Below are positions 9,952 to 53,371 of a stretch of DNA of 64,000 bases, piece after piece. The position numbers were made by a program, and so were the translations under genes. Source of the stretch: Gemmatimonadota bacterium (GTDB lineage Bacteria > Latescibacterota > UBA2968 > UBA8231); the NCBI GenBank assembly GCA_018672475.1, contig JABHFS010000109.1, positions 3,713-67,712 of the forward strand, written 5' to 3'. Below the pieces are notes generated by a model, which ran no database searches, was not told the DNA's origin, and saw nothing but the letters and a program-made list of their open reading frames with translations. The first letter of the stretch is position 1; the number at the start of each line of letters is the position of its first letter.

Positions 9952-9958
9952 GCGTCTT

Positions 9959-11367: not shown

Positions 11368-11844
11368 TCAACGCCGTCTATAGGTGGTAAATACCAGGTC
11401 TGCTTCCGGTCGTTCCTCGACCACTTCCCATTCGCTTTTGTCCCAAGCCGGAAAATACGCGTCGCCCTCGACTTCGATCGGCAAATGCGTCAGGATCATC
11501 TCGTCGGTCAGTGGCAAGGCGAGATTGTAGATTTCCGCGCCGCCGAGGATAAAGAGTTTTTGCGCGTCGCGTTGTCTGGCGGTGGTGATAACCTGTTGTA
11601 GGTCTTGGCAAATGATCACCCCCTCGTCGGAGATGTAGGCGGGGTTGCGGCTGAGGATGAAGTTGAGGCGGCCGGGCAACGGGCGCACTTGGAAGGACTC
11701 GTAGGTTTTGCGGCCGGCGACGACCGGGTGCCCTTTGGTTGTGCGGCGAAAGTGTTTCATGTCGGCTGGATAGTGCCAGGGGATGCTATTGTCGCGGCCT
11801 ATGACCCTGTTCTTACTCAGGGCGGCGATAATGACGGTTTTCAA
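11368..11844 (-). CDS. folA: Dihydrofolate reductase
   Basis: KTVIIAALSKNRVIGRDNSIPWH..D.KHFRRTT.GHPVV.GRKTYES...LPGR.N.ILS...I.GGAEIY. The start is a TTG at 11844 overlapping the upstream TGA (TTGA). Confidence 0.9.
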   Translation of the reverse strand: MKTVIIAALSKNRVIGRDNSIPWHYPADMKHFRRTTKGHPVVAGRKTYESFQVRPLPGRLNFILSRNPAYISDEGVIICQDLQQVITTARQRDAQKLFILGGAEIYNLALPLTDEMILTHLPIEVEGDAYFPAWDKSEWEVVEERPEADLVFTTYRRR

Positions 11845-13678: not shown

Positions 13679-15195
13679 AGCAGGTAGACAAAGCGCATGA
13701 GAACCTGTTGTCTGGCCTGCAAGCGCACGATCGGTTTTACGCGTTCGAAGTTGAGGACGATATCCATATTGACAAAGCGGCTGAGCAGCAGGCGCAAGCG
13801 GTTCTCGAAGGTGAACTCCCAAGCGCTCGTGGCCACCTCCGGGATCAGGATGTCGAATTCTGAGTCCAGGCTGAGGTAGCGCGAAAAATGCGCGTTGAGG
13901 ATCAACAGGGCTTCAACGCCGGTGGTCGAGGTGTCGAGCAATTTGCGGGCTACCGTGCGGTCGGTGTCGAGGGCAAAGGTCTCTGTTACATAGCTCTGTC
14001 GCGCCCCGATACCGACGCGCATGTCCAGGGTCAGCGGGAAGCTGCGGATAAGCTGCGAGTTGATGCCGATCCCTTGGCGGAGTTCGAGCGGGCTTAGGGC
14101 GGGCGACAGCGTGAACTCATTGAGCCCGGTCCGGGAGCTTGCGATATTGCCGAGGGCGTCGCGGATCAGCAGGGTCTGCGGCTGGTCGAAGCGGGCTTGG
14201 GTTGCGAATAGCTTGGTATTGATGACGCCGCGCAAATAGGGGCCGACGCGTTCGGAGAAGCGGTAAATATATGTGGCGCGGACCTCAAATTCATCGATGG
14301 ACTTGCGAAAGGCATCACCTTCTTCGCGCGTGAAGCCTTCTTCAAAGATCAGCCGTAGATTGGCGAAATGGGGGTCGGAGCTGTAGATGCTGCGACCAAA
14401 GATCTGGGTTGAAAGCGAGATGACCGAGAGGTCCTCGCCGGTCGTGTTTTGCGAAGTCGAAAGCTGGGTCGAACCGCTCAATTGCCAGTTGGTCTTCCAG
14501 TGGGAACCCATTGCTTGACCCAACAGACCTCGCAAGGTCGGGGGATAGAAGCCGATGAAAGTGTTGTCGCCGACGTTGGCTACTAGGTTGCGCTGGACCA
14601 GTTCACCTGGTTCGAGGCGGACGCTGAATTTGCGTCGGGTCGATATATTATCGCCGACGCGCACCACGGTATAGGTGCCCGGGGGCAAGAGCCAGGTCTT
14701 GACGGCCTCGCCGCGCTCTTCCTCGATACCGAAACCGATGCCGTAGTTTTCCTGCTGGTCCTCCCAGTAGAGTTCATACGACTCGTTGAGCGAGGTGCGG
14801 TTTTCGTCGATGACGTTGATGACGAGGCCAGCCCAGAAGGGCTTCAACAGGGTGGTCATGCCTTCTTCGATCGGTATCGTTCGGCTCATCATTTGCGCGT
14901 CGGTGCCGGTACCGACGAGTACTTCGTAGAAGCCCGGCGAGAGCAGTACGCCGGTGCCCGGCGAGGCTTCGGCGATGCGCTTGTTGCCCTGAAATACGCG
15001 GAAGCTGGGTTCGTTGAGGGCATTGGTCATCGCCGGGACGAAAAGAAAACCTTTGCCCTTGGGGATCATGGTTGGGTCGAGCTCTAACTGGCCACGAGTC
15101 GGCGGACTTAGCCACGTGTAGCTCTTGTCTTGTGCTGTCGCACCGCCGGCAAAGAGCAGGCCGGCGAGGGCGATATAGAACAGGCGCAATAACAT
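13675..15195 (-). CDS. Signal-peptide protein, candidate outer-membrane beta-barrel with an N-terminal beta-sandwich region
   Basis: MLLRLFYIALAGLLFAGGATAQ signal. Two similar segments (SPGFYEVLVG and PPGTYTVVRVG). The C-terminal half has alternating hydrophobic beta-strand patterning up to the end (RFVYLL). The family call is tentative. Confidence 0.65.
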   Translation of the reverse strand: MLLRLFYIALAGLLFAGGATAQDKSYTWLSPPTRGQLELDPTMIPKGKGFLFVPAMTNALNEPSFRVFQGNKRIAEASPGTGVLLSPGFYEVLVGTGTDAQMMSRTIPIEEGMTTLLKPFWAGLVINVIDENRTSLNESYELYWEDQQENYGIGFGIEEERGEAVKTWLLPPGTYTVVRVGDNISTRRKFSVRLEPGELVQRNLVANVGDNTFIGFYPPTLRGLLGQAMGSHWKTNWQLSGSTQLSTSQNTTGEDLSVISLSTQIFGRSIYSSDPHFANLRLIFEEGFTREEGDAFRKSIDEFEVRATYIYRFSERVGPYLRGVINTKLFATQARFDQPQTLLIRDALGNIASSRTGLNEFTLSPALSPLELRQGIGINSQLIRSFPLTLDMRVGIGARQSYVTETFALDTDRTVARKLLDTSTTGVEALLILNAHFSRYLSLDSEFDILIPEVATSAWEFTFENRLRLLLSRFVNMDIVLNFERVKPIVRLQARQQVLMRFVYLL

Positions 15196-15206
15196 GAGTG
15201 CGGGTC

Positions 15207-15992
15207 CTAGGGGCTGAGCTTGCCCGGTATAATTTCGTAGTCGTTGGAATCGGTGTCGATCAACAAGGTAGTATCGGGCTCGGATGTGGCGTTCAATCCA
15301 TTCGTGGACGAGGTCAATTCCCCTAAGGCCTCGTTCAGACTCGAGCGCTGTTGATTGAGGAAGACGAAGTCGATCGAGCGAATGGATTTTTTCATTTGCT
15401 CGCCGAGGAGCACGCTGAAGGCGGAGACGGTGTGCTTCATCTCTGGGAAGAAGACATTGCGTTCCTCGTCAAAGTCGGTCTGCCAGATAACGTGGCCGTC
15501 CTCTTGCCGTACTAGTTCCATGCTCATGGCCAGATGGGCCGCCCATACATCGCCGCTATCAAAGCGTTCGATGGCCTTGATCCTGCCGTTGAACACATAT
15601 TGCGGGCGTCGATCGTAGAAATCGCGATCCCCGCCGATATAGGTGAAAAGGTTGGCTTGACGCAGATATTGTTTGACGACGTCGGTGAGCAGGTCCGCGG
15701 GACGCTCGGTCCAATGATGGAAATTGTCGTGTTGAAGCTCGTATTGGTCGCGGCGGACGATGATCTCTTTGCGGTTGTAGGCTCTTGGAGCTTCGAAACC
15801 TTTGATCTGAATCTGGAAGGCATAGGGGCGTGTGGAATTTTCGATATCGTTGCGCATGGGCTCGACGTTGAGCATATAGAGGCGCCGCTGGGGTAGCTCG
15901 GCCTTGCCGCCGAGCAGGTGTGTGCACCCCGATAACAACGAGACCGACATGGTTATGAAGCCCCAAAAGAGCAGGTGTTTATTCGCTCGCAC
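15207..15992 (-). CDS. ABC-transport auxiliary lipoprotein (PqiC/YmbA, DUF330-like)
   Basis: A GTG at 15992 gives VRANKHLLFWGFITMSVSLLSGC, a plausible lipoprotein signal plus lipobox. The ATG at 15950 would leave only 8 residues before the Cys. The body (RRLYMLNVEP..., IIVRRDQYELQHDNFHHWTERPADLL) fits the auxiliary-component family. It overlaps the MCE gene by 14 nt. Confidence 0.7.
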   Translation of the reverse strand: MRANKHLLFWGFITMSVSLLSGCTHLLGGKAELPQRRLYMLNVEPMRNDIENSTRPYAFQIQIKGFEAPRAYNRKEIIVRRDQYELQHDNFHHWTERPADLLTDVVKQYLRQANLFTYIGGDRDFYDRRPQYVFNGRIKAIERFDSGDVWAAHLAMSMELVRQEDGHVIWQTDFDEERNVFFPEMKHTVSAFSVLLGEQMKKSIRSIDFVFLNQQRSSLNEALGELTSSTNGLNATSEPDTTLLIDTDSNDYEIIPGKLSP

Positions 15993-16962
15993 TGCTGCTG
16001 CTTCCCCGGATGAGTACGGACGGATTGTCGCGGATAAGTTCAGTGGTCTCGCGCACGTTTTGTAAGGTCTCCTCCAGATCCTGCATCGCACGCAGGAGGT
16101 TTTGCCGGCTGGCGCCGACCGTTTGGTCGATGCCGACGAAAGTCCGGTCGATATTGGTGACCATGGTGTCCATCCGAGCGATCAGTTGGGGAAAAGGTCC
16201 GTCCATTTGTTGGCGTAGTTGGTGCATTGTCACCTGTAGGTCGGCCACGGTTTGTTGCAGCTTGGCGCCGACGAGCAGGTTGTGCAGCGAGTCGGTGGTC
16301 ACCGCCAGAGTCGCGCTCGCCTGGGAGAGCGAACGGGTGGTCGCGGCGATATTATTTGCCGTCTCGTCTACGGCGAGTCGGTTGTCCTGGACCAAGGTGT
16401 TGGCGGTGGCCATCAAGTCACCGGTATTGCGCAGCAGATCGGTGAAGACGCGTTGGTTCTCGCCGCCGAGCAATTTATTGAGATTGTCGACGGACTGTTC
16501 GATTTTTATGCTGAGGACTTCGGCGCGTTCCTGTATGTTGCTGAAAAAAGTTTCGCTGGCGGTAATATTGGAGCCGGGGAGAAGCTCTTTGGCGCCATTG
16601 CTGCCGCCGAAGAGCTCGATATACTTCAGGCCCGTTATGCCCAATGAGGCCATGCGTGCTTCGGTGTCGGTGCGAATGGCATTTTCGGCTTTTTGGCTCT
16701 CGACCGAAATGGCGACAACGACCTTGGTCAGGTCTTCGGGGGAGATATAAATACCCTCGACCCGGCCGACATTGAACCCGAGATACTTGACCGAGGCTCC
16801 TTTGTTGAGACCGCTGACCGCTACGCCGGTGAATTCGATATTATAGGAATCGCGTTGGTGCAGGAGGTGGCTGCCGGCGACTACGATAAAAAAGAGCGCC
16901 AATACACTACTAGATATTATAAAGAATAGGGCGAGGCGTATTTTCTGAGCCCTGGTAGCCAT
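15979..16962 (-). CDS. MCE/MlaD-family protein
   Basis: N-terminal TM (IRLALFFIISSSVLALFFIVVAG), then the MCE domain YNIEFTGVAVSGLNKGASVKYLGFNVGRVEGIYISPED, and a long helical C-terminal region. Confidence 0.85.
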   Translation of the reverse strand: MATRAQKIRLALFFIISSSVLALFFIVVAGSHLLHQRDSYNIEFTGVAVSGLNKGASVKYLGFNVGRVEGIYISPEDLTKVVVAISVESQKAENAIRTDTEARMASLGITGLKYIELFGGSNGAKELLPGSNITASETFFSNIQERAEVLSIKIEQSVDNLNKLLGGENQRVFTDLLRNTGDLMATANTLVQDNRLAVDETANNIAATTRSLSQASATLAVTTDSLHNLLVGAKLQQTVADLQVTMHQLRQQMDGPFPQLIARMDTMVTNIDRTFVGIDQTVGASRQNLLRAMQDLEETLQNVRETTELIRDNPSVLIRGSSSSASE

Positions 16963-17077
16963 AAAAGAGTATTGGGAAAGAGATGAAATTAGAAAGAAAT
17001 GGGTAAATCGACCGAGTTTGGGAATATGGGCAATATGATAATCCGAGGCAAGGATAATTGCGATGTGAATAAGATGG

Positions 17078-17962
17078 TCAGACGGGCGGTAAGATGATGT
17101 TCAAAGCCTTGGGACAGATCTCGATGCTTAGCGGGCTTTCGCCGAGGTGTTCGCCGTCTGCGTGCACGACCCTTTTATGCTCGGTGTAGATCTCGATTTT
17201 GGCGGTTCTTTCGACGCGTACGGCGGGATGAGCGATATGTTGGCCGGTGAAAAGGCGAGGCAAAACGGATAGAATGGTCCATCGGGGGACATTGTCGATG
17301 ATCACGACCTCGAAGAGCCCGTCGGTGGGGTCGGCTCCAGGGGCGATTTGCAGGCCGCCGCCATAACTGCGGGTATTGGCGATGGATACTTGCAATACTT
17401 CTTGTTCTATCTCGCCGAAATCCCCGCGCAAGCGCACACGTGGCGCCTGATAGCGGGCGGTATGGCGCCATGTCTCTATAAGATAACCGGCTGTCCCAGA
17501 TAAGGGCACCTGGCCATTGGCCATTCGCTCGCTTATTTCGGCGTCGAAACCAAATGCGGCGACCGTGGCGAAGAAACGATTCCCGACCTGGCCTAGGTCG
17601 ATCGCTCGTGGTTGTCCTTTGAGCAGACAGTGCACGGCGGCGTCAATCTTGCGCGGCACAGCCAGTGCGCGGGCTAGGTCATTGGCCGTGCCAAAGGGCA
17701 GCAGGCCAAGCGCGGTTTGTGAACCGGCGAGCGCGGGTAAGACCTCACCGATCGTGCCATCGCCCCCGCAGACGATGAGTCTGTCGGCGTGCTCGCGGAC
17801 TGCTTGGCGGGCCAATTCCGTGCCGTGCCCCTTCTCGTGTGTATAGCGCAATTCGACCGCTTGGCCGGCGGCTTGCAGGGCCAGAGTGGCTTGCTCGGCG
17901 ACCGCGCGACCACGGCCGCCGCCAGCTACCGGATTGGCGATTAGGATCCAGCGTTGCGTCAT
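17078..17962 (-). CDS. Diacylglycerol-kinase-family lipid kinase (YegS/BmrU-like)
   Basis: ILIANPVAGGGRG, LIVCGGDGTIGEV and LGLLPFGTANDLARAL are the DAGK catalytic-domain motifs. Confidence 0.85.
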   Translation of the reverse strand: MTQRWILIANPVAGGGRGRAVAEQATLALQAAGQAVELRYTHEKGHGTELARQAVREHADRLIVCGGDGTIGEVLPALAGSQTALGLLPFGTANDLARALAVPRKIDAAVHCLLKGQPRAIDLGQVGNRFFATVAAFGFDAEISERMANGQVPLSGTAGYLIETWRHTARYQAPRVRLRGDFGEIEQEVLQVSIANTRSYGGGLQIAPGADPTDGLFEVVIIDNVPRWTILSVLPRLFTGQHIAHPAVRVERTAKIEIYTEHKRVVHADGEHLGESPLSIEICPKALNIILPPV

Positions 17963-18060
17963 TGGGGTTTGCTTGCTCTTTTGTCATTAACCTGCGAGGG
18001 GGCAAAATCGCCATAGCTTGGCTCGCCCCTTGCCCCTCGGCGCTTAGTCGCCGCATGCAG

Positions 18061-18071
18061 TATATTATAAC
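18061..18071. promoter_or_regulatory. Symmetric -10 core TATATTATAAC in the divergent lipid kinase / megasynthase intergenic region
   Basis: The plus strand reads TATATT (18061-18066). The minus strand reads TGTTATAAT (18072 down to 18064), an extended -10 facing the lipid kinase gene. The same 11-mer recurs at 18301-18311 and 43074-43084. Confidence 0.4.
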
Positions 18072-18277
18072 ACATTAGGTGGTAGTGCAGCGAGCATTGG
18101 GAGATTATGGCCAAACAAAAAAACACACCTCCGGACAAAGCGGCCGCTCGGCGGCGGGAGCTAATAAAGCAAGTCAAACATCCCTATATTACGGGGCAGG
18201 GCTTAGACCGCCAGCGCCGCGCAGCGGAAGGGGGAGATCGCGAATCGGGGGCATCGCCTACCAATCCATGAGCTTCC

Positions 18278-18311
18278 TTGTGGAGGACCATTCAGCGCAC
18301 TATATTATAAC
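18278..18311 (+). promoter_or_regulatory. Candidate sigma70-type promoter of the megasynthase operon
   Basis: TTGTGG (18278-18283), 17-nt spacer, TATATT (18301-18306), about 60 nt upstream of the ATG at 18369. Contains the second copy of TATATTATAAC. Confidence 0.4.
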
Positions 18312-18368
18312 CCCAATATAAACTCCGTCTTAGCCCTATCCTGGCCACCGGGCCTACCGCTGTCAGAG

Positions 18369-21300
18369 ATGGGGCTTTTGTCCTTTATGATCAGAGAATT
18401 TTACCAAGACCGCACCGTGTTATTGACCGGGGGCACTGGGTTTTACGGTCAGGGACTGACCGCTAAGATTCTGCGCTATTTGCCCGAGATAAGACGGCTG
18501 TATCTAATCCTGAGACCAAGCCGAGGCCCCGATGGGGTCGCTTTGCCGGTTGACGAGCGTTTACAGGGCCTTTTTGAGCAAGTCGTCTTTGATCGTTTTC
18601 GCCGTGAAGACCCGGCCGCTTTCGCTGTTGCGCGTGGCAAGGTGCGGGCGCTCGCCTGTGATATGAGGGCCCCTGGCCTCGGCTTAGACGATGAGTCGAG
18701 GGCTGAATTGCTCGGCGAAGTCGACCTTATTATTGGCAATGCGGCCAGCGTCACTTTCGATGAAGCGCTCGATTCCGCTATTCAGTTCAATTCCCTGGCG
18801 CCGCAAGAGCTTTTGCAGTTAGCCCGAGAGGGTGCCAAAAAACCCGTTTTGGTGCACGTGTCCACCGTTTATGCGAATGGGCGTCAGACCGGGTCGATTC
18901 CAGAGCAGCCGCTGGCCATCGATCGGACCGTGCAGCAATTGATCGACGGCAACGTGCAGGGGGGCCCCTTCGTGCCAGAAGACGAGGTCGCCAACGCGCA
19001 GGCGCATTGCCGGGCGATACGCGAACGGGCGGAAAGCCAGGAGCAACAAGGGGAATTCCGCCGCGAGATCGTCGAAAAGAGCTATAGCCGCGAATTATCG
19101 GACAGCCGTTTGCAAAAGCTGTTAGCTGATCGCAGCCGGCGTTGGACTGAAAGCGAGTTGGTTAAGGAGGGGATGCGTCGGGCCAGGCTCTACGGTTGGA
19201 ACGATGTCTATACCTTTACGAAGGCGATGGGAGAGCAATTGTTGGTCAAGCACCGGGGCGAGGTGCCGCTGGTCATCGTGCGGCCCAGTACCACTGAGGG
19301 CGCGCTGACAGACCCACATCCAGGCTGGATTCACGGCCTGAAGGTGACCGATCCACTGGTCGTAGCCTACGGTCGGGGATTGGTTTCCGATTTTCCGGCC
19401 GCGCTCGGCGCGCCGATGGACCTGGTCCCGGTAGATATTGTCGTCAATACGGTGCTGACGGCGGCGACAAGGGCCCACAGCGACGGGGTGGAGGTTTATC
19501 ACGCCGCGACGAGCGGCGAGAACCCGTTGCCCAATACGCGGATGTTCAAGTATATCAAAGCGTATTTCGAGGAATTTCCGCTACTAAACAAGGACGGGAC
19601 TTGCCCTGAGTTGGTGGATTGGACCTTTCCATCGGTGCAGCAATTCCAGCGGGTCTTTAATTGGAGATACCTCTATCCGTTGAAATTAAAACAACGAATC
19701 TACGACCGCCTGCCCGAGCGTTGGGCGTCCGCGAGTAAGAAGCGACGGCTGGCGGCGATCAACACGCGGCTCAAACGGGTGCAGTATTTCACCGATCTGT
19801 TTAGCCCTTATACGACCTTGGATTGCCGCTACGAGGCCGTGCGGATGTTGGCTCTTTACGAGTCGTTGCCACCGGAAGAGCAGCGGATCTTCAATATGGA
19901 TGTGCGGCAGATAGATTGGTTCGAGTATTACCAAAAGACCCACCTGCCCGGTCTGCGCCGTCATGAATTGGGCGGGGGAGGTGATGAGGAGCCATTGCGG
20001 GCGGCTCCTGGGGAAGAAATGGGTGGCGAGGAAAGCCGTTGGCAGATTGAAGAGGAGATCCGCACCATTCCGGATCTCTTGCGCGCGGTCAGCAGTCGGT
20101 ATGCGGCTAAGACCGCGTTGCAGATAGAACGCCCGTCGGGTTGGAAGCGGGTTAGTTATGGCGAATTGTTGGGCAATGCCGAAACTATGGCACGCTACTG
20201 GCAGGCCGAGGGTTTGTCGAGCGGGGACCGGGTTTTATTGTGCGGAGAAAATAGTCCGGAGTGGGTTGTCGCTTATATGGCCGCGAGCCTTCTCGGCCTA
20301 GTGGTAGTGCCGGTCGATCCGCAGACCCGCGAGGTGGATATCTGGGCTTTGTGCGATTTTGTCGAAGCTCGCGCGCTTATCGTTACAGAGAAACGCTTCT
20401 CTCAGCTGTCCCCTGAGGGCGTGATCGCCCACAAGCAGATGTCCTTTAATAGTATTGACCGCGAGGGCATGTCTTTTGGCGGCAAGGAGTCTACTGGCTC
20501 GGCGGTCGGGAGAGGAAGCTGGCAGGCTGCGCGGGTCGAGCCCGATGATTTGGCCTCGATAATTTTCACCTCTGCTATTGAACCGCGCGGGGTAGAACTG
20601 AGTCACGGCAACTTCGTTGCGAATCTATTGGTCTTGGCCGAAGTGCAAGCACTTTACGAGCAAGACCGCGTGCTTTCGACGCTGCCTTTACACCACGCAC
20701 TCGAATTTACGGGCGGCTTGTTGGTGCCGCTTTTGGGGGGGGCGACGATTACCTATTTAGAGGCCCTCAATAGCCGCGAGATTTTGCGGATGATGCGAGA
20801 CACAGGCACGACGGCCCTGTTGACTGTGCCGCGCCTGTTGCGGATTGTGGCCGATCGTATCACGCGTTTGCGGCCGCCAGAGGAGCGGGAACCGGCGCTG
20901 GCCAGATTGCGTTTGCTCGTTAGTGGCGGTGCGGCGCTGACGGAGGAATTGCGCCTCACTTATGAACGACTGGGGGTGACGGTATATCAGGGCTATGGAT
21001 TAAGCGAGGCCGCGCCGGTCGTTGCGGTGAACGCACCGGGGCAGTGCAAGGCGTTGTCGGTGGGGAAAGTGTTGCCCGGGCAGGAGGTGCGGGTTGCCGA
21101 CCCGAACAAGCTTGGTGTCGGCGAGATTCTGGTGCGGGGCGCTAATGTGACGCGGGGCTATTTCTCCCGCTCCGATCTGAGCCAAGAGCTATTGTCCGAC
21201 GGGTGGATGCACACCGGCGATTTGGGCTATTTAGACCGCGAGGGATATCTTTTTATAGAAGGTCGTTGTAAGGATTTGATCGTTACGGGCGCCGGTAAAA

Positions 21301-22619
21301 ATATCTATCCGCAAGAGGTAGAATCTCTATATGCTGATTTGCCGCACGTAGCCGAGTTAGCGGTCGTCGGCGTGTTTGCCGAGCGCACTGAAGGCGAAGA
21401 AGTGCATGGGATTGCGGTGCTCGAACGGGGTGGGCAGGAGCAAGAGGTGTTGCGGGAGGCCGTTATTGGGAGCGTCTACGAAATCGCGCGTTCGCTGCCG
21501 AGTTATCACCGGATTCACCGGCTACACATCTGGACGCACCCCTTGCCGCGCACTGACGACGGGGCCGTAGATCGTCAGGCGTTACTCGTCGAACTCGAAG
21601 GGGATTTGCGAACGAGCACGGAGCCGATAGACTCGTTGCCGCCGTGGGAACAGGCAATCTATCGGCGGATCGGTCAGATTTCGGGTTTGAGCCCTGGCGA
21701 GGTCGCCGCGCACGCCGATGTGCCGCTCGATACTGTGCTGGATTCGCTGATGGCTGTGGAATTCGCCGCGTTGCTCGAAACGCGTTTGGGGATCCGTCTT
21801 AACGGAATGGACCGTTCACAGGATACCTTGCGAAAGGTGCTGGCCCCGTATGAATCGGACCTTAAGGGAGTGGTCGATTGGGGGGTGGAGGGGCAAGCAT
21901 CCGGGTACTGGGCGCAGACCCTGGAGGCGGTGCCTGAGGCGGTGCCTGAGGCGGAAAAAATAGCCAGCACCGGCAAGAAAATGGTGCAAGGGGCCGTATG
22001 GGGGGTGGGGGGGTCCTTGTTTCGCAAATACTTCGACATTGGCGCCAGCGGGTTGCAGCATTTGCCACAGGATCGACCCTATTTGATCGCCGCCAACCAC
22101 GCCAGCCATCTCGATGGCCCGAGCGTCTATGCGGCGGTGCGTTCCCGGGTGGACGAACTCAATGTCATCGCCGCGCAAGATTATTTCACCGACGCGGAGT
22201 TGGGGGGCTGGTTTTCAGATGCTCTAGTCAACGCCGTGCCGCTCGATGGCCACGGCGATTTCGCGCAAAGCCTGGTACGGGCACGACAGTTGGTCGGTGT
22301 CCGGCGGCCGCTGCTAGTCTTTCCCGAGGGGACCCGCTCCGCAAGCGGGCAATTGCAACCCTTTAAGGCCGGTGTCGGGCTGTTGGCCTATGAGATGGGT
22401 GTGCCCGTGGTGCCCTTGCATATCGCCGGCACTGAGGAAGCATTGCCGCGGGGTAGCCGCAAGCCGGCGAGCCATCCCTTGCGACTGCTCTTCGGCCTGC
22501 CCCTCGAAATAGACGCTTTCAAAGGGCGCGACGATGCTTTGAATGCCTACGAGGTCTATCGCGAGATCGCCGAGTCGCTCAAGCGGCAGATCGAGGCGTT
22601 GGGGCGAAAGAATATCTGA
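18369..22619 (+). CDS. Multidomain lipid megasynthase: fatty acyl reductase (NAD-binding + FAR_C), AMP-dependent acyl ligase, carrier protein, PlsC-type acyltransferase (ElbD-like architecture)
   Basis: 1416 aa. FAR domain: LLTGGTGFYGQ, YTFTKAMGEQ. FAR C-terminal-like region: aa ~390-530. Ligase: YQGYGLSEA, WMHTGDLGYLDREGYLFIEGRCKDLIV, GKNIYPQEVE. Carrier: DTVLDSLMAVEF. Acyltransferase: NHASHLDG (HX4D), FPEGTRS. Confidence 0.9.
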   Translation: MGLLSFMIREFYQDRTVLLTGGTGFYGQGLTAKILRYLPEIRRLYLILRPSRGPDGVALPVDERLQGLFEQVVFDRFRREDPAAFAVARGKVRALACDMRAPGLGLDDESRAELLGEVDLIIGNAASVTFDEALDSAIQFNSLAPQELLQLAREGAKKPVLVHVSTVYANGRQTGSIPEQPLAIDRTVQQLIDGNVQGGPFVPEDEVANAQAHCRAIRERAESQEQQGEFRREIVEKSYSRELSDSRLQKLLADRSRRWTESELVKEGMRRARLYGWNDVYTFTKAMGEQLLVKHRGEVPLVIVRPSTTEGALTDPHPGWIHGLKVTDPLVVAYGRGLVSDFPAALGAPMDLVPVDIVVNTVLTAATRAHSDGVEVYHAATSGENPLPNTRMFKYIKAYFEEFPLLNKDGTCPELVDWTFPSVQQFQRVFNWRYLYPLKLKQRIYDRLPERWASASKKRRLAAINTRLKRVQYFTDLFSPYTTLDCRYEAVRMLALYESLPPEEQRIFNMDVRQIDWFEYYQKTHLPGLRRHELGGGGDEEPLRAAPGEEMGGEESRWQIEEEIRTIPDLLRAVSSRYAAKTALQIERPSGWKRVSYGELLGNAETMARYWQAEGLSSGDRVLLCGENSPEWVVAYMAASLLGLVVVPVDPQTREVDIWALCDFVEARALIVTEKRFSQLSPEGVIAHKQMSFNSIDREGMSFGGKESTGSAVGRGSWQAARVEPDDLASIIFTSAIEPRGVELSHGNFVANLLVLAEVQALYEQDRVLSTLPLHHALEFTGGLLVPLLGGATITYLEALNSREILRMMRDTGTTALLTVPRLLRIVADRITRLRPPEEREPALARLRLLVSGGAALTEELRLTYERLGVTVYQGYGLSEAAPVVAVNAPGQCKALSVGKVLPGQEVRVADPNKLGVGEILVRGANVTRGYFSRSDLSQELLSDGWMHTGDLGYLDREGYLFIEGRCKDLIVTGAGKNIYPQEVESLYADLPHVAELAVVGVFAERTEGEEVHGIAVLERGGQEQEVLREAVIGSVYEIARSLPSYHRIHRLHIWTHPLPRTDDGAVDRQALLVELEGDLRTSTEPIDSLPPWEQAIYRRIGQISGLSPGEVAAHADVPLDTVLDSLMAVEFAALLETRLGIRLNGMDRSQDTLRKVLAPYESDLKGVVDWGVEGQASGYWAQTLEAVPEAVPEAEKIASTGKKMVQGAVWGVGGSLFRKYFDIGASGLQHLPQDRPYLIAANHASHLDGPSVYAAVRSRVDELNVIAAQDYFTDAELGGWFSDALVNAVPLDGHGDFAQSLVRARQLVGVRRPLLVFPEGTRSASGQLQPFKAGVGLLAYEMGVPVVPLHIAGTEEALPRGSRKPASHPLRLLFGLPLEIDAFKGRDDALNAYEVYREIAESLKRQIEALGRKNI

Positions 22620-22620
22620 T

Positions 22621-23385
22621 ATGTATCCCTATCTGCTTGAGATCGGCCCGATTACCATCGCCAGTTTCGGCGCGATGGTCGCATTGGGTTTTATCGCCGC
22701 GCTGTACATCCTGAATCTGGACTTCAAACGAAAAGGGTTCGATGACGAGTTGGGCTCGACGATTATCACGACCTGTATGGTCGGCGGCGTGCTCGGGGCC
22801 AAGCTCTACTTCGTCCTATTCGAAACACCGCCGAACCAAGACTGGGAGACTATTTTTGGCCAAGTATTTTCGGGTTATGGCCTGACTTGGTATGGCGGTT
22901 TTGTCGTTGCTTCAGCTGGGGTCATCTGGCAAATTCGCCGCCATAACGTGCCGCTGGGCCAGGTCGTCGACTCGGTGAGCATCGCGCTGGCGCTGGGCTA
23001 TGCGATTGGGCGGATCGGTTGTCAATTGGCTGGCGACGGTGACTATGGCGTAGCGACCGACCTGCCCTGGGCGATGGCCTATCCGGACGGCGTGGTCCCG
23101 ACGCTGGAAAAGGTACATCCCGCGCCGGTCTATGAAACGCTCTCGCACTTAGGGATCGCAGGGTTGCTCTGGAGTTTGCGGATGCGCATTCAACCGCCGG
23201 GGCTTCTGTTCGCCATCTATCTGGTATTGGCGGGGGGCGCGCGATTTATGGTGGAGTCGATCCGGTTGAACCCGCGGGTCCTTTGGGGGTTTAGTGAAGC
23301 GCAGTTGATCAGCATCGCCTTTATGGTGTTTGGTTTATTTTTGGCGGCTCGGTTGCATTTTAAGGTTAAGGAAGAGTCAAATTGA
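22621..23385 (+). CDS. lgt: Prolipoprotein diacylglyceryl transferase family protein (Lgt paralog or ortholog)
   Basis: [45 protein letters not shown] and HPAPVYE are Lgt motifs. The ATG at 22621 is 1 nt after the megasynthase stop. The track ORF's 26 upstream codons lie inside the previous gene. Confidence 0.85.
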
Positions 23386-24854
23386 CGGAAAAAGTGCGGT
23401 ATCCCCGCGTATCGAGCTTTAAAAAAACGGACGATTTTCGCGCCCATCTCGAGAAGGTGGATGCGGTGATGCCCTGTGATGATGCTATTGAGACGGCCCC
23501 GGCTTCGCCGCTGGCGCAGTCGGCCGAAGTCGGCGGGGTGCGCATCGGCAACCGCTTTGCGATCCAGCCGATGGAGGGTTGGGACGGCAATGAAAAGGGC
23601 GAGCCTAGTGATTTGACCCGTCGCCGCTGGCGAAATTTCGGTCTCAGCGGCGCCAAACTGATTTGGGGCGGGGAAGCTTTCGCGGTCGTGCCGGAGGGGC
23701 GCGCCAATCCGAACCAACTAATGGCGCTGGAGGGAAATCGCGCGGGCATGGCCGAGTTGCGCGACATTCTACTCGCGGCCCATAACGAGCGCTTTGGTAA
23801 GACCGATGACGTGTTATTGGGTTTGCAGTTGACGCATTCGGGGCGCTTCTGCCGGCCCTTTCGCAAGGACCGGATGGAACCGGCGATCCTCTATCGCCAT
23901 CCGATTCTCGATCGCAAATTCGGTATCGACGCCGATTATCCATTGATCGAAGACGCCTATATCGAAATGTTGATCGACCGCTATGTCGTCGCCGCGAAGA
24001 TCGCCTGGGAATTGGGCTACCACTTCGTCGATGTCAAGCATTGCCACGGCTATCTTGGACACGAGTTTCTGGGGGCATTTACCCGCGAGGGGCCCTATGG
24101 TGGTTCTTTTGAGAATCGCACGCGTTTTGTTCGCCAGATTATCGCGGGGATTCGCGCCGAAGCTCCGGGCCTAGGGATCGGTGTACGTTTGAGCCTCTTC
24201 GATTTTGTGCCATTTATGCCTGATCCAAACGAAGGGGAGGATGGCAAGCTGGGGCGGGGCATACCCGAACCGCATACGGACTTTCTGCCTTATCAATACG
24301 GCTTCGGGCTGTCTCAAGATGATCCGCTGCAAATCGATTTGGGAGAAGCGGAACAGTTTATTACACTGCTCGAAGGGCTCGGCGTTGAATTGTTTAACTT
24401 ATCATGTGGAAGCCCCTATTATAATCCGCATATCCAACGTCCGGCGCTTTTTCCGCCTTCGGATGGATATCAACCGCCGGAAGACCCGCTTTGCGGTGTG
24501 GCGCGTCAGGTGGCCGCAGTTGCTCGGGTTAAAGCGCGCTTTCCAGGTCCGCTTATCGTCGGTTCGGGTTACTCGTATCTGCAGGAGTACTTGCCGCATG
24601 TTGGGCAGGCGTTGGTGCGAGAGGGGATGGTCGATTTCATCGGCTTGGGGCGGATGGTATTGTCCTATCCGGATTTGCCTCGCGACGTTTTAGAAGAGGG
24701 GCAGATGAAACGCAAGTATATCTGCCGTACATTCTCAGATTGCACGACGGCGCCGCGCAATGGGATGGTCTCGGGGTGTTTTCCGCTCGACCCATTTTAT
24801 AAAGAGCGTGAGGAGGCGGTGCGGATGAAAGAGCTTAAGAAGGCTTTGAAATAA
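23382..24854 (+). CDS. NADH:flavin oxidoreductase, Old Yellow Enzyme family (long form)
   Basis: 490 aa. [21 protein letters not shown] and [15 protein letters not shown] are OYE TIM-barrel motifs. The TTG start at 23382 overlaps the lgt stop (TTGA), so the start is somewhat uncertain. Confidence 0.8.
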
Positions 24855-24925
24855 AGCCGTTTGGAGATATTATCTATCAGTGTTAAAAATAGACAAAATG
24901 CATCCTGTTGAGGGGAGCTGAGCTA

Positions 24926-25657
24926 ATGAGTGCGTTTGTGGACAAGGTAGTGGTGGTCACAGGTGCTGGCACGGGGATTGGCGAGGCCGTAGCCCGAGGA
25001 TTTGTTGATGCCGGGGCGCGGGTGGTTTTTGTCGGCCGACGAACCGAGAAACTGGTAGTGGCCGCCGCCGGTCTTGATGCAGAGCGGGTGATGCTGCGGT
25101 CGTGTGACGTGGCCGACCGCGAGGCCGTTGACGCTTTGGCGGCCGAAGTCGCGGCCGAATGGGGCACCGTCGATATTCTGGTCAATAACGCCGGGACCAA
25201 TTCCAATCCGCGCGCTGTCGGCGAGGTCGATCCGCAAGACTGGGATCGGACCATCGCCATTAACCTCACCGGGGTCTACAATATGGTTCGGGCGGTATTG
25301 CCCGGCATGCGTGCTCAGCGGGATGGAGTGGTCATCACGGTCTCTTCGATAGCTGGTCTCAGGGCCAGCAAACTGGCCGGGGCGGCCTACTCGGCCTCAA
25401 AGCACGGTGCAGTGGCTTTGACGCATTCGCTCAACGAAGAAGAAGTGGGAAATGGCATCCGCGCCTGCGCGATATGCCCAGGCGAGGTGGAAACGCCCTT
25501 GCTTGAGAAGCGGCCGGAGCCGGTCGGCGCCGAGCGCCGGGCGGCGATGCTGCAACCCGAGGAATTGGCCAGCACCGTGCTCTTCGTCGCTTCCTTGCCC
25601 CCTCGTGCTTGTGTGCCGGTATTGGTGATCAAACCTACGGTACAGATCTTCCAATAG
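24926..25657 (+). CDS. Short-chain dehydrogenase/reductase (SDR)
   Basis: VVVVTGAGTGIGEA, LVNNAG and YSASKHG. The ATG at 24926 is preceded by AGGGGAG. The track's TTG at 24908 is less likely. Confidence 0.9.
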   Translation: MSAFVDKVVVVTGAGTGIGEAVARGFVDAGARVVFVGRRTEKLVVAAAGLDAERVMLRSCDVADREAVDALAAEVAAEWGTVDILVNNAGTNSNPRAVGEVDPQDWDRTIAINLTGVYNMVRAVLPGMRAQRDGVVITVSSIAGLRASKLAGAAYSASKHGAVALTHSLNEEEVGNGIRACAICPGEVETPLLEKRPEPVGAERRAAMLQPEELASTVLFVASLPPRACVPVLVIKPTVQIFQ

Positions 25658-25670
25658 GCTGGAGGAAACT

Positions 25671-27980
25671 ATGTCCAAAACGCATGACATAACGCCACTA
25701 GAAGTTATTGAAATCTGTCCGGGGTCTTTTCTGCTCAAGGTTCTCGAGGCGGGCGTGTCCTTGCTGTTTAACGCCTGGCCCGATATCACCAAATACCTGA
25801 TCCAGCAGCAGCACGAGATCAACGGCGTCGTCTATCCGGATTTACGCATGCAAACCTCGAAGGGGATAAGCTGCAATCTCATCGAGTTCCCCCTGTTGCA
25901 TGCGATGTTCAACCAGGGGATGGTCTTCCGCAACGAAAAACCCTGCCTCATCGGTACTGAGCACCAACTGACGCTGGCTAGCGAGAGCTTTCGCCGGGGC
26001 CTTTACGGTTTTTACTCGGCGGAGGAATTGGCCGATTGCGGCCTTTCGGCCGCGGAAATAGACGGAGTAATGCGCGAGATCGAAGGGCTCTCGCTCAACG
26101 GGATTCAGCCGATAGACGAGTTGCTCGAATTGGTGCCGCTGGTGCCCTTGCAGGAACTGCCCAGCGAGTTCGATGCGACCTGTTATAATGGCGTGCGGAT
26201 CTGGAAAGAGGACTTCAATGTTTTCGGTATCGAATACCAGGGCCACCGGGTTTCCATCGACTGCACGCTTCCAGTGGGCGAGGAGTACCGGCCGCCGCTG
26301 AATATCGATGTCAAAAACGTTCCCTACAGACTTTTCCAAATCATCGATACAGGGGAAGAGGACGGTTTCTCAACCAAGAGTTGCATGCACACGGTGATCC
26401 AGTGGCGTGACCGGGTTATTTGCGTCGACCTGCCGATGAATGTCTCGTATCTGCTCGGCAAGGTGAGTATTTCCAAAACGGAAATCGACGCAGTGATCTT
26501 CACCCACAACCACGACGACCACATCGGCGACTTCTCGTTACTGCTGCAGATGGACCGCAAGCTAACCATCTTCTGCCCGCGCGTCATCTGGCGGGCGATC
26601 CTGCTCAAGGCCTCCGCCGTCTTTGATATGTCCGTTGACGAGTTGGCGGAGTACTTCGACTATGTGCCGATCGTCTACGGCGAAGAATACGACTACGCAG
26701 GCTTGCGCATCCTCGCGCACCCTTCGATTCATTCGGTGCCCTGTGCGATCTACCGCATCCGCGGAATCGTCAACGGCGAGTGGAAGACCTACGCCCATAT
26801 GAGCGATATCCTCAACTTTCAGCGCTGTCAGAAACTGTTGCAAGAGGGGCATCTGACAACGCGCCGTCTGGCCGAGTACAAAAAATTCGTAATGGAGCCG
26901 GCGGCGGTTAAGAAAATCGACGTCGGGGCGCGCGACGGTACCGAAGACTTCTCCGTACACGGCTCCTGGCGCGATTTTATTGAGGATAAGTCGGAGCATA
27001 TTGTGCTTGCTCATACTTCGGCAGATGCGCTCGATGAAAGGGCGAAGGTGCAGGTTGGCCAATTCGCAGTAGCCGGCTCTGCCCGCGATATGGGCGAACG
27101 CGGAATCCATACTTATCATGATCAATACCGCGAGCGGGCCCTTAGCTATTTGGCCGACTATCTGTTCTCGTTATTGGAAGCCCGACTCGAAGACGGGGAC
27201 CTCGGTAGGCATCGGTTGCGCAGCTATTTGCGGATCCTCGCCGACAACGAGATTCGCGTTATCCAGCCCTATACGCCCTTTCTTAAAGAGGGCGGGGAGC
27301 CGACCTTTGTCGATGTCGTGATCAGCGGGGCGGGAAGTCTCTGGGATGATCGAGATGGCGAACTCACACGCGTCGCGACAGTGCAGGCTGGTGATGTGAT
27401 CGGCGATATGGGAATACTGTTAAAAATGCCGCGCACCGTGACCATTCGCTCTGATACCTATATGCACTTACTGCGTATACCGGCGATGCTCTTTGAGGAG
27501 GTCGCGGTGGCTCTGGGTATTACCGACAAAGACAACGGGCAGAGCGAGGGGGTGATAGAGAAAGTCTGGCGGCACCGTGAGATGGTACAACACTCGGGTA
27601 TTTTCGGTGCTGAAGTACCATTCTATTTGCAAAACAAGATCGCTCAACGGGCTGACGAAGTCTGTTTGGAAAAGGGGGACGTGTTATTGGGGGCGGCCGG
27701 AGAGCGATCCTTGTTTATCAGTGATGACTGCGATGCCTTTACCGTCGAGGTCGACAGTTATGCGATTGACGCCGGCCCTTATCCGTTTTTTGGCGAAGCC
27801 GCATTTACGACCGGTGAGCAGGAGGCCTATCGGGTCGTCGCCCGGCGCCGAACAATGGTCTTGCGCTTGGCGCCGGAAGAATTCAGCTGGATCGGTGAGG
27901 TGCCGCTTTTTAAACTGCGTCTCAGGCAGTTGGCCGAGGAGCGTGCGATTCAGGTGCAGCGGGCTAGGCGTTCGGGTTAG
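25671..27980 (+). CDS. Three-part protein: unknown N-terminal domain (~250 aa), MBL-fold metallo-hydrolase domain, two CAP-type cyclic-nucleotide-binding domains
   Basis: MBL motif IFTHNHDDHIGD (HxHxDH). cNMP domain 1: FLKEGGEP...GDVIGDMGILLKMPRTVTIRS. cNMP domain 2: LEKGDVLL...FFGEAAF...YRVVARRRT. Starts 13 nt after the SDR stop. Confidence 0.8.
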   Translation: MSKTHDITPLEVIEICPGSFLLKVLEAGVSLLFNAWPDITKYLIQQQHEINGVVYPDLRMQTSKGISCNLIEFPLLHAMFNQGMVFRNEKPCLIGTEHQLTLASESFRRGLYGFYSAEELADCGLSAAEIDGVMREIEGLSLNGIQPIDELLELVPLVPLQELPSEFDATCYNGVRIWKEDFNVFGIEYQGHRVSIDCTLPVGEEYRPPLNIDVKNVPYRLFQIIDTGEEDGFSTKSCMHTVIQWRDRVICVDLPMNVSYLLGKVSISKTEIDAVIFTHNHDDHIGDFSLLLQMDRKLTIFCPRVIWRAILLKASAVFDMSVDELAEYFDYVPIVYGEEYDYAGLRILAHPSIHSVPCAIYRIRGIVNGEWKTYAHMSDILNFQRCQKLLQEGHLTTRRLAEYKKFVMEPAAVKKIDVGARDGTEDFSVHGSWRDFIEDKSEHIVLAHTSADALDERAKVQVGQFAVAGSARDMGERGIHTYHDQYRERALSYLADYLFSLLEARLEDGDLGRHRLRSYLRILADNEIRVIQPYTPFLKEGGEPTFVDVVISGAGSLWDDRDGELTRVATVQAGDVIGDMGILLKMPRTVTIRSDTYMHLLRIPAMLFEEVAVALGITDKDNGQSEGVIEKVWRHREMVQHSGIFGAEVPFYLQNKIAQRADEVCLEKGDVLLGAAGERSLFISDDCDAFTVEVDSYAIDAGPYPFFGEAAFTTGEQEAYRVVARRRTMVLRLAPEEFSWIGEVPLFKLRLRQLAEERAIQVQRARRSG

Positions 27981-28056
27981 TGCGCTGTGGATTGCTCGCT
28001 TTATTGAAAAATTGGACTTTCCGCACTTGGTTGGTAGTCCGAACGAGCTTGGTATA

Positions 28057-29157
28057 TTAGGCTTTCAGGCCGTGTCCTGAGAGCACGCTGACCACCCGAT
28101 CGCCCGGTCGCAAATCCGCTTTCTGCCGATATTGTCGCAAGCCTTCCCAGATTACAGCCGAAGTCGGTTCGACGCAAAATCCCCTGCGCCCTAATTCAGT
28201 AATGCCCTTTTTGATATCTTCCTCGGATACGGCGAGCACATCGCCCCCGCTTTCCCGCAACGCGCTCAGTAGTTCGACGTCGCGTACCGGTTTGGGCAGG
28301 GCGATGCCTTCGGCCAAAGTGGGCTGCGGGTCTTTGGCGGGCGCGACTGTGCACGCCCCTTCGTGAAAAGCCCGGTGTAGGGGGGATATGTGGGCTGCCT
28401 GTATCGCGACGAGGCGCGGCATGGAGCTTATGGCGTCTGCTGCGAGCAAATCGCGAAAGCCCCTATAGAGGCCGAGGAGGATACTGCCTGCCCCTACGGG
28501 ACATAGGATGGCGGCAGGCGCTTGCCAGTTGTTTTGCTCGGCCAATTCAAACGCCAGTGTTTTGACCCCTTCGATAAATAGCGGATGCCACAGATGAGAA
28601 GCGTAGGGCACTTTGTGTTGTGCAGCGTAGGTGAGCAGTGCTTCGGTCGCACGAGGGCGCGGTCCTTCGACGGGCACGAGCTCGGCGCCATAGAGACGAA
28701 TTTGCGCCAGCTTGCCGGGTGAGGCTGTGGCCGGGCAGAAGACCTTGAGGCGAATATCGGCCCGGATGGCGTAGGCGGCGAGGGCGGCTCCGGCGTTGCC
28801 AGAGGAATCTTCGACTGCTTCGCGGATGCCTATGTCACCGAGATAACTGGCGAGCAAGGCGGCACCGCGGTCCTTGTAGGAGCCGGTGGGCATCAGGTAT
28901 TCGCACTTGGCCCAGGCCTCGATTCCGTCCTGTTCGAAAGAGACTAATGGGGTTACTGGCTCGCCGAGTGAAATGCGTTTGGCGAACACGGGCAGTGCCT
29001 CGCTATAACGCCACATATCGGATGGGCGGGTGGCGATGGCCTCGCGGGGGAATGTTGGCGTTTGCGATGGCAGATACTCTACCGGTCCGTCACAGGTCGG
29101 GCAGCGGTATATCGGTTCGATGACGGGTATTTTGCAGGCGGGGCAATGAAATTTCAT
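28057..29157 (-). CDS. Threonine-synthase-family PLP enzyme with an N-terminal zinc ribbon
   Basis: CPACK...CPTCDG zinc ribbon, PLP-lysine motif PTGSYKDRGAA, and SSGNAGAA. Specific function not assignable. Confidence 0.75.
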   Translation of the reverse strand: MKFHCPACKIPVIEPIYRCPTCDGPVEYLPSQTPTFPREAIATRPSDMWRYSEALPVFAKRISLGEPVTPLVSFEQDGIEAWAKCEYLMPTGSYKDRGAALLASYLGDIGIREAVEDSSGNAGAALAAYAIRADIRLKVFCPATASPGKLAQIRLYGAELVPVEGPRPRATEALLTYAAQHKVPYASHLWHPLFIEGVKTLAFELAEQNNWQAPAAILCPVGAGSILLGLYRGFRDLLAADAISSMPRLVAIQAAHISPLHRAFHEGACTVAPAKDPQPTLAEGIALPKPVRDVELLSALRESGGDVLAVSEEDIKKGITELGRRGFCVEPTSAVIWEGLRQYRQKADLRPGDRVVSVLSGHGLKA

Positions 29158-30547: not shown

Positions 30548-30976
30548 ATGGATTGGCACCCCCTTATCGTTCACTATCCCATCGCCTTGTTGCCCTTGAG
30601 CCCGTTGTGCGATCTGGTCGCGTTGTGGTCGCGGCGAGGCGAAGGACACCTGCTCGCCTATGGGTTGATGGTCCTCGGGACCCTGGCATCATGCGTCGCG
30701 GTGCTCAGCGGCAATGCCGCGGCCGAAGGCCATTGGCAGGGGGCTGCCGCCGGGGAGATTTCGGCGCATGAGGACCTGGCGACATGGACTATGTTATTGG
30801 CCTTAGGCACGACGTTGGGGCGATTGCCCTTGCAGTTGAAGGGGGCAATGGACGGTAAGGCGCTTTACGCGTGCATCGGGATGGGCATACTGATCGGCGT
30901 GTTAGTGGCGTTGACCGGTTATCGCGGGGGCGAATTGGTTTATGTGCATGGGATAGGTGTGGTGACGGGTGGCTGA
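30548..30976 (+). CDS. DUF2231-like integral membrane protein
   Basis: MDWHPLIVHYPIALLPLSP is the typical DUF2231 N-terminus. Four hydrophobic helices. Overlaps the kinase GTG start by 8 nt. Confidence 0.7.
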   Translation: MDWHPLIVHYPIALLPLSPLCDLVALWSRRGEGHLLAYGLMVLGTLASCVAVLSGNAAAEGHWQGAAAGEISAHEDLATWTMLLALGTTLGRLPLQLKGAMDGKALYACIGMGILIGVLVALTGYRGGELVYVHGIGVVTGG

Positions 30977-32990: not shown

Positions 32991-32991
32991 T

Positions 32992-36384: not shown

Positions 36385-36402
36385 GGTTTAGGTCTCCTGA
36401 CA

Positions 36403-36450: not shown

Positions 36451-36460
36451 AATATACGGT

Positions 36461-37033: not shown

Positions 37034-37125
37034 GGTATTGCTCCCTGATGAATTAAATCGTGTGTTGATTTTTGCGTTGTGTCGAATATCGACTGGGCCC
37101 ATTGCCGATGTTCTACCAGAGATAA

Positions 37126-53368: not shown

Positions 53369-53371
53369 GCT

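Follow-up and report, generated by a model that had tools for sequence, protein, structure and literature searches.

An ElbD-family multidomain enzyme with a conserved Lgt and OYE-like helper set in Gemmatimonadota and related lineages

The window analyzed here, a stretch of 64,000 nucleotides of a Gemmatimonadota bacterium (assembly GCA_018672475.1, contig JABHFS010000109.1, positions 3,713 to 67,712 of the forward strand), contains an operon that begins with the gene for a 1416-aa multidomain enzyme with the architecture of ElbD, the ether-lipid enzyme of myxobacteria. This gene is followed by a member of the Lgt family and by a gene for a flavoprotein resembling the old yellow enzymes (OYE). 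The original prediction, made from the letters of the window, had placed a fatty-acyl reductase (FAR), an acyl ligase, a carrier domain and a PlsC-type acyltransferase (AT) in the one open reading frame (ORF) and had likened the protein to ElbD. The genes and domains concerned are listed below, with positions counted from the first nucleotide of the window.

18369-22619, plus strand: ElbD-architecture multidomain enzyme, 1416 aa (Pfam, motif table, full-length alignment)
18423-19451, plus strand: FAR domain of this enzyme (Pfam NAD_binding_4, residues 19-361, E 1e-52)
19761-19964, plus strand: FAR_C of this enzyme (Pfam Sterile/FAR_C, residues 465-532, 46.2 bits, gathering cut-off 35.4)
20091-21560, plus strand: adenylation (A) domain of this enzyme (Pfam AMP-binding, residues 575-932, E 8e-67; AMP-binding_C, residues 983-1064)
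21654-21812, plus strand: carrier domain of this enzyme (Pfam PP-binding, residues 1096-1148, 19.9 bits, slightly under the cut-off of 20.8)
22047-22424, plus strand: PlsC-type AT of this enzyme (Pfam Acyltransferase, residues 1227-1352, E 2e-20)
22621-23385, plus strand: Lgt-family membrane protein, 'Cys-type' subfamily, 254 aa (Pfam LGT, E 1.9e-44)
23382-24854, plus strand: OYE-like FMN flavoprotein, 490 aa (Pfam Oxidored_FMN, E 6.5e-18)

All four predicted domains were found by Pfam in the 1416-aa protein, the carrier domain with a marginal score, and their coordinates give the order FAR, A, acyl carrier protein (ACP), AT. The motifs named in the original prediction (TGGTGFYG, YTFTK, LDSL, NHASHLD and FPEGTRS) are each present in the translation, and the features described there were confirmed at their positions with E-values far beyond chance. 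A motif table also showed that the FAR GxxGxxG and YxxxK motifs, the carrier DSL serine and the AT HX4D and FPEGTR motifs of the window enzyme are intact. ElbD has been described as a FAR1-like N-terminus followed by an acyl-CoA synthetase (ACS), an ACP and an AGPAT-like acyltransferase (PMC9131029). The window protein agrees with it in the four activities and their order and retains the catalytic motifs of the reductase, carrier and acyltransferase. In Myxococcus xanthus the gene lies in an operon of elbA (epimerase), elbB (HAD), elbC (unknown), elbD and elbE (epimerase), and alkyl and vinyl ether lipids disappear when elbD is mutated (PMC9131029).

An ElbD-like protein of an uncultured member of the Myxococcales (locus L024, 2043-6428) served as proxy for M. 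xanthus ElbD (MXAN_1528, Q1DC43) in the full-length comparison. BLASTP aligned it colinearly with residues 15-1412 of the window protein (29% identity, E 2e-159), and the gene 3' of it encodes an ElbE-like epimerase. This end-to-end alignment supports, by way of the proxy, the earlier match to ElbD and the view that the window protein is a genuine full-length ElbD-family enzyme. Among the matches listed in a scan of a genome collection, the Myxococcota were represented at the level of metagenome-assembled genomes (MAGs) by L024, by an Anaeromyxobacter locus (L023) with the gene order epimerase-HAD-Lar_N-ElbD and by one locus of the Bradymonadaceae, and M. xanthus was not among them. Many full-length homologues share about 70% identity with the window protein, several of them on contigs of 4-7 Mb, and those that bear names are Gemmatimonadetes or Gemmatimonadota, so that the top matches assign the host to Gemmatimonadota; homologues at 43-58% identity include MAGs labelled Handelsmanbacteria and Latescibacterota, and those at 33-37% identity are 1450-1480 aa long with a clear PP-binding match.

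The operon is tightly packed. The Lgt start codon (ATG, 22621) begins 1 nt past the TGA stop of the ElbD-type gene (22617-22619), and the OYE-like gene overlaps the Lgt stop by 4 nt, as expected from the gaps of 1 nt or less reported earlier. To place this arrangement among other ElbD loci, operon types were derived from gene-context look-ups and from local tblastn searches of the helper genes against all fetched loci, and two types were distinguished.

Type 1: ElbD identity to the window protein 29-36%; Acidobacteriota, Armatimonadota, Planctomycetota and Myxococcota; helpers are HAD and/or Lar_N, often a diacylglycerol (DAG)-type kinase, sometimes an epimerase or zinc alcohol dehydrogenase, and never Lgt or OYE-like
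Type 2: ElbD identity to the window protein at least 43%; the window, Gemmatimonadota and MAGs labelled Latescibacterota and Handelsmanbacteria; helpers are Lgt and then OYE-like immediately 3', and never HAD or Lar_N

Genes of ElbD architecture therefore carry two mutually exclusive helper sets, HAD/Lar_N and Lgt/OYE-like. No homologue of HAD, Lar_N or the ElbE-type epimerase was detected by tblastn in the window or in any type 2 locus; compared with elbA-E, the HAD protein ElbB, the Lar_N protein at the ElbC position and the epimerase ElbE are replaced in the window by Lgt and the OYE-like protein. Type 2 proteins form a single clade in a neighbour-joining tree (computed with no bootstrap values). 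The genes for ElbD or FAR, Lgt and OYE were contiguous in all ten genome or long-contig loci, with gaps of at most 25 nt or overlaps, and the trio was kept among proteins diverged down to 43% identity. One locus, L005, carries the trio in a different genomic context.

With respect to the gene at the ElbC position of type 1 operons, a Lar_N domain was observed in L023 (4759-6372) and also in L004, L009, L012, L015, L021, L025 and L027. Lar_N is the N-terminal domain of lactate racemase, of the nickel-pincer cofactor family, and the gene is a candidate for a redox-neutral catalyst of the classical Elb pathway.

A metagenome scan seeded with the operon Lgt was combined with local tblastn, and the following counts refer to Lgt genes of at least 53% identity. 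A FAR or ElbD gene lay upstream in 14 of the 16 loci with an informative upstream flank, and an OYE-like gene lay downstream in 16 of 18 with an informative downstream flank. In L092 (6486-10467), L095, L096, L098, L107 and L111 the place of the full-length gene is taken by a stand-alone FAR (about 570 aa), with Lgt and OYE still 3' of it, and no gene for an A-ACP-AT protein was found within 7-10 kb of the FAR-only loci. In addition, the AT HX4D motif is gone in one type 2 subclade (P0080, P0082 and P0088-P0092), whereas the FAR motifs are invariant across every homologue in the motif table. Because the FAR motifs are invariant and the A, ACP and AT parts have decayed or been lost in some lineages, the core under the most consistent selection, and the conserved core of the type 2 system, is FAR, Lgt and the OYE-like protein.

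The Lgt of the operon was examined as a possible pathway enzyme and as a housekeeping prolipoprotein diacylglyceryl transferase. Its match to PF01790 is nearly full-length (152 bits, profile positions 1-238 of 240), and it falls under every NCBIfam Lgt cut-off (TIGR00544, 96.8 against 118.9 bits; the best, NF000778, 113 against 334). Compared with Escherichia coli Lgt (PDB 5AZB/5AZC) it scores 35 bits and shows 22.7-27% identity, depending on the alignment (tblastn, MAFFT). All operon Lgts retain R143, H196, Y201/E202, R239, E243 and R246 (E. coli numbering), as in the E. coli enzyme; H103 is retained in five of the eight aligned. In all of them Y26 is replaced by F, N146 by C and Y235 by A or S (A in the window), and they lack 22 residues corresponding to about 168-190 of E. 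coli Lgt. The Lgt signature is G-R-x-G-N-[FYW]-x-N-x-E, and Y26, N146 and G154 are reported to be essential in E. coli. This canonical signature does not occur in the window protein; a motif of 14 residues is invariant in the operon Lgts.

The substitutions at Y26 and N146 and the sub-threshold scores had suggested a neofunctionalised paralogue specific to FAR. This idea was largely abandoned because the motif GR.GC.L.GDG.YG is common to all 135 of the best 150 cluster representatives in which the motif could be located, because about 60 metagenome loci hold Cys-type Lgts at 42-48% identity among unrelated and variable neighbours (e.g., HisRS...Lgt...SpoU), and because two loci, L100 and L105, carry orthologues at 57-59% identity without ElbD or OYE. 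The Lgt of L100 adjoins a Peptidase_M19 gene, which in L005 follows the trio. Of 11,620 Lgt-family representatives, about 250 reach an E-value of 1e-30 or lower. Furthermore, the ABC_trans_aux lipoprotein of a neighbouring Mla operon has the lipobox LLSGC, so the cell needs a working Lgt, and the fetched loci, which are parts of genomes, showed no second Lgt. The operon Lgt is thus probably the ordinary housekeeping transferase of these phyla, co-transcribed with the pathway.

The OYE-like protein is the most conserved member of the trio, its best 120 homologues being 61-88% identical. The Oxidored_FMN match covers profile positions 7-231 of 342, and the matches in PDB by sequence were TsER, YqjM and XenA. 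An AlphaFold2 model (pLDDT 80.6, pTM 0.86) was compared by Foldseek with these thermophilic-like OYEs, giving target-normalised TM-scores of 0.78-0.80 at 19-24% identity. The TIM-barrel fold is shared, and the catalytic Tyr and the second substrate-binding His have counterparts in Tyr224 and His222; however, the position of the first His is occupied by Lys219, PMEGW stands in place of PMC-Q-Y, and the window protein is about 130 residues longer. Its invariant residues include PMEGWD, KHCHGY and a further stretch of 15 residues. A Cys-rich loop of the form C-x5-C-x11-C, invariant in the family and absent from classical OYEs, spans residues 450-469 (window 24729-24788) at low pLDDT. A second invariant low-confidence loop spans residues 349-361. 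The Cys-rich loop looks like a shortened form of the Fe-S loop known from FadH- or NCR-type enzymes and may be a metal or Fe-S site; FAD and NAD(P)H domains are absent after it. The OYE-like protein would be a redox or flavin-assisted partner of FAR, and its gene would sit where ElbE-type epimerases, zinc alcohol dehydrogenases or Lar_N proteins sit in other lineages.

The remaining genes around the trio are the following.

11841-16962, minus strand: Mla-type phospholipid transport operon (Pfam MlaD, ABC_trans_aux lipoprotein, a 506-aa protein, MlaE, MlaF)
13675-15195, minus strand: the 506-aa protein, between ABC_trans_aux and MlaE (DUF3078 sub-threshold, 24.7 bits, cut-off 25)
17078-17962, minus strand: YegS/Rv2252/BmrU-family lipid (DAG-type) kinase (TIGR00147, 187.8 bits, cut-off 118.65; DAGK_cat and YegS_C)
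18107-18271, plus strand: 54-aa conserved ORF, located between the genes for the kinase and ElbD (invariant core HPYITGQGL)
24908-25657, plus strand: classical short-chain dehydrogenase/reductase (SDR) oxidoreductase, 249 aa (Pfam adh_short, E 1.8e-56)
25671-27980, plus strand: metallo-beta-lactamase (MBL)-fold and cyclic-nucleotide (cNMP)-binding protein, 769 aa (Pfam cNMP_binding, Lactamase_B_2)

The SDR and MBL/cNMP genes were found after OYE as had been described, and the five accessory genes turned out to be unequal. Lgt and the OYE-like protein are partners throughout the clade. The SDR follows the OYE-like gene in some relatives (the window, L001, L095, L096 and L173) and is absent from L003, L005, L006, L007, L008 and L092, its place being taken by a PIG-L gene in L007 and L008. 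Of the relatives, only the closest, L173 (ElbD 81% identical), has a homologue of the MBL/cNMP gene, placed after the SDR gene and annotated there as Lactamase_B/Anti-Pycsar_Apyc1; the gene is probably a recent, lineage-specific add-on and possibly encodes a regulatory cyclic-nucleotide hydrolase. The YegS kinase was confirmed as the divergent DAG kinase and lies upstream in eight of the nine type 2 genome loci; it also adjoins many type 1 ElbD genes, and adjoining DAG kinases of non-myxobacterial ElbD have been noted in a preprint (bioRxiv 10.64898/2026.06.23.733905), so the link is not specific to this lineage. The earlier suggestion of a partly different gene set in another lineage holds with regard to the missing HAD, Lar_N and ElbE, and it does not hold for all of its accessory genes alike.

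Directly upstream of the ElbD or FAR gene, nine type 2 loci, FAR-only L092 among them, encode a small ORF of 48-93 aa with an invariant HPYITGQGL. Its relatives lie in L001 (about 9830-9975), L003 (9630-9869), L006 (7621-7881), L092 (6048-6305) and L173 (9729-9902), and also in L094, L104 and L106. The window copy (18107-18271) matched no Pfam family, and many synonymous third-position changes across the nine loci indicate selection at the protein level and hence a real gene. The 80-aa ORF given by the ORF finder at 18079-18321 was rejected as the conserved gene, being in the wrong frame. A scan of 16900-28300 for promoters and terminators returned nothing over the shuffled expectation.

The Mla block lies downstream of the kinase, and it is likewise upstream of the operon in L001, L003, L006-L008, L029, L092 and L173. 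The 506-aa DUF3078-like protein was kept inside the Mla operon in all related loci and may be an uncharacterised Mla component of the phylum.

Elsewhere in the window, FlgH (L-ring, 52784-53368) and FlgI (P-ring, 53372-54496) bear out the statement that the host encodes L/P-ring flagella, a difference from the myxobacterial Elb hosts. The ORFs at 34595-37237 were considered as flagellar ring genes and rejected: they had no Pfam matches, and it is 52784-54496 that encodes the rings. Positions 50449-58081 hold the whole flagellar cluster (FlgF/G, A, H, I, N, K and a flagellin-like FlgL), and just 3' of it a 1081-aa protein (59359-62604, plus strand) combines GT2 and GT4 glycosyltransferase domains with TPR repeats and may glycosylate flagellin. 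Between its amidohydrolase and RpiA genes the window encodes a PAS/Cache histidine kinase with a sigma-54-dependent response regulator (30969-34350, plus strand) and then a TRAP transporter (37577-40592, minus strand); the corresponding interval is much shorter and without these genes in relatives such as L003 and L006, and the stretch looks like a lineage-specific insertion.

We consider it somewhat better than an even chance that the locus is a variant of the ElbD-family pathway, spread across Gemmatimonadota and relatives, that yields fatty-alcohol-derived and probably O-alkyl glycerolipids; the ether-lipid product is inferred. The invariant FAR domain would reduce a fatty acyl group, bound to the internal carrier or drawn from the pool of acyl-ACP/CoA, to the aldehyde or alcohol, and this product would then become an O-alkyl chain on a glycerol backbone. 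The PlsC-type domain would add an acyl chain, and the OYE-like flavoprotein would carry out a partner redox or ether-forming step, a role that ElbE-type epimerases, zinc alcohol dehydrogenases or Lar_N proteins may fill in other ElbD lineages. Where an SDR is present it could reduce a 2-keto intermediate, and the YegS kinase would phosphorylate the neutral alkyl(acyl)glycerol for entry into phospholipid synthesis. The enzymes can also be mapped, by inference only, onto the peroxisomal-type pathway of eukaryotes and of MXAN_1675-1676 (FAR1, GNPAT, AGPS and alkyl-DHAP reductase). The FAR, A and AT domains would correspond to FAR1, ACS and GNPAT/AGPAT, the SDR could act as alkyl-DHAP reductase, and a flavoprotein stands in place of AGPS, likewise a flavoenzyme. 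However, AGPS is FAD-linked and the window protein is an FMN-type OYE TIM barrel, and the FAR-only variants of type 2 have no GNPAT-like domain.

Several observations weigh against this interpretation. Identity to the myxobacterial proxy is no more than 29%. The adenylation P-loop of the window enzyme is degenerate (FTS--AIEPRG, residues 731-746, window 20559-20606), with a 2-residue deletion confined to the window's subclade, and the A10 lysine is missing (PRTDDGAVDR, residues 1059-1072, window 21543-21584). Fatty-acid activation by this domain is therefore doubtful, in which respect the window protein departs from ElbD. The motif table places these losses in a wider setting, since the P-loop is non-canonical in ElbD homologues outside Myxococcota, and the A10 lysine is missing in all type 2 and most type 1 proteins and in most non-myxobacterial ElbD homologues. 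The FAR-only variants show that the acyltransferase half is dispensable, which weakens a strictly ElbD-like mechanism. The coupling of the trio is also incomplete: in L094 an ElbD-Lgt pair is followed at the OYE position by a convergent unrelated gene, and in the 8.4-Mb genome of L091 an OYE-like copy (9001-10473, 64% identical) stands alone beside mreB/mreC, neither FAR nor Lgt being present within 9 kb. The usual reaction of OYEs is the reduction of activated C=C bonds, and ether-lipid synthesis is not known to include an intermediate of this kind. Lipid data for the type 2 clade, or ether lipids in Gemmatimonadota, were not found in the literature searched.

Furthermore, about 25 kb of flanking synteny is conserved, including the unrelated genes for PALP, IlvD, amidohydrolase and RpiA, so adjacency alone is weak evidence for shared function here. 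This makes adjacency weaker than usual as an argument both for the ElbD-type pathway and for the two explanations considered next, and the changed context of L005 together with the tight coupling of the genes carries most weight for that reason.

According to the first of these explanations, which we regard as unlikely, no ether bond is made. FAR would supply fatty aldehydes or alcohols for wax esters or neutral lipids, the OYE-like protein would be an enal or enoyl reductase, and the A-ACP-AT half would re-acylate lysophospholipids in the manner of acyl-[ACP]--phospholipid O-acyltransferase (Aas), e.g., those arising from lipoprotein maturation, which would account for the Lgt, Mla and kinase neighbours. 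Residues 595-1011 of the window enzyme do resemble Aas models of NCBIfam, but at 199 bits against a cut-off of 1221 the scores are far too low, and the domain order of Aas differs from that of the window protein. The existence of FAR-only variants indicates that the reductase works without the acyltransferase, and Mla, the lipid kinase and Lgt are general envelope-lipid genes; however, no wax synthase was seen in the loci. OYEs are the classical 2-enal reductases, and this fold was matched in the window protein. Against this, ElbD is needed for alkyl and vinyl ether lipids in the sole genetically tested member of the family (PMC9131029).

Still less probable, in our estimate, is an active part for Lgt in the pathway. 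The enzyme would transfer diacylglyceryl from phosphatidylglycerol to a FAR-derived alcohol (O for S), giving alkyl-diacylglycerol; in a second form, Lgt would place ether-containing (alkyl-acyl) glyceryl anchors made by ElbD and OYE onto lipoproteins. The Lgt start lies 1-14 nt from the ElbD or FAR stop, or overlaps it, in all type 2 loci, including the FAR-only ones and L094 with its missing OYE, and the enzyme, although short of the canonical signature and of the NCBIfam equivalog cut-offs, retains R143, R239 and E243 for phosphate binding and catalysis. However, the Cys-type Lgt is a broad subfamily of about 250 representative clusters whose motif was present wherever it was located among the top representatives, and it occurs in variable housekeeping contexts. 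The close orthologues of L100 and L105 without ElbD or OYE, the lipobox proteins that call for a housekeeping Lgt, and the lack of a second Lgt in the fetched loci argue in the same direction.

Bolder than the ElbD-type pathway itself, and in our judgement a speculative proposal with a small chance of being right, is that FAR, the Cys-type Lgt and the OYE-like protein form a self-sufficient, previously unrecognised module for ether-bond formation. In one version the OYE-like protein would be a non-homologous analogue of alkyl-DHAP synthase, with a flavin-assisted exchange of acyl for alkyl on an enolisable glycerone intermediate; in the other, Lgt would alkylate the fatty alcohol with a glyceryl unit.

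ElbD homologues of the nonribosomal peptide synthetase (NRPS)-like kind have been reported outside myxobacteria in studies of sponge symbionts, from Acidobacteriota, Poribacteria and Latescibacterota (mSystems 2022, PMC9426513; bioRxiv 10.64898/2026.06.23.733905), and this work also describes forms in which the split falls between the reductase and A domains. The proposal of an ether-lipid pathway in a different lineage is accordingly not new for ElbD as such, and what stands of it is the occurrence in Gemmatimonadota with the Lgt/OYE set. The sponge-symbiont clusters are like the window in their NRPS-like elbD homologues and DAG kinase neighbours; unlike the window, the papers mention neither Gemmatimonadota carriers nor Lgt or flavin/OYE neighbours, and the fetched loci of type 1 have HAD or Lar_N and never Lgt/OYE. 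The 'standalone' elbD hits of Latescibacterota may be of type 2. A link of ElbD to Gemmatimonadota, Lgt or OYE was not found in the searchable literature. The Lgt/OYE-like helper set is therefore a new conserved variant, undescribed in that literature, of a family whose homologues, DAG kinases and split forms were already known.

The ether-bond-forming step of the ElbD pathway is still unknown (PMC9131029). The two exclusive helper sets, together with the reduction to FAR, Lgt and OYE, provide a short list of candidate ether-forming or partner enzymes for it. Should the lipid prove ordinary, the locus would still usefully illustrate how an essential lgt gene can be built into an operon for lipid metabolism. 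Non-isoprenoid alkyl glycerol ethers serve as environmental biomarkers (PMC5552659). It is further predicted that glycerolipids derived from fatty alcohols are a core trait of Gemmatimonadota; the phylum is abundant in soil, and the bacterial producers of alkyl glycerol ethers are only partly known. If the module of FAR, Lgt and OYE does form the ether, it would answer how ElbD-type pathways make this bond, and Gemmatimonadota would be a major unrecognised source of the alkyl glycerol ethers in the environment.

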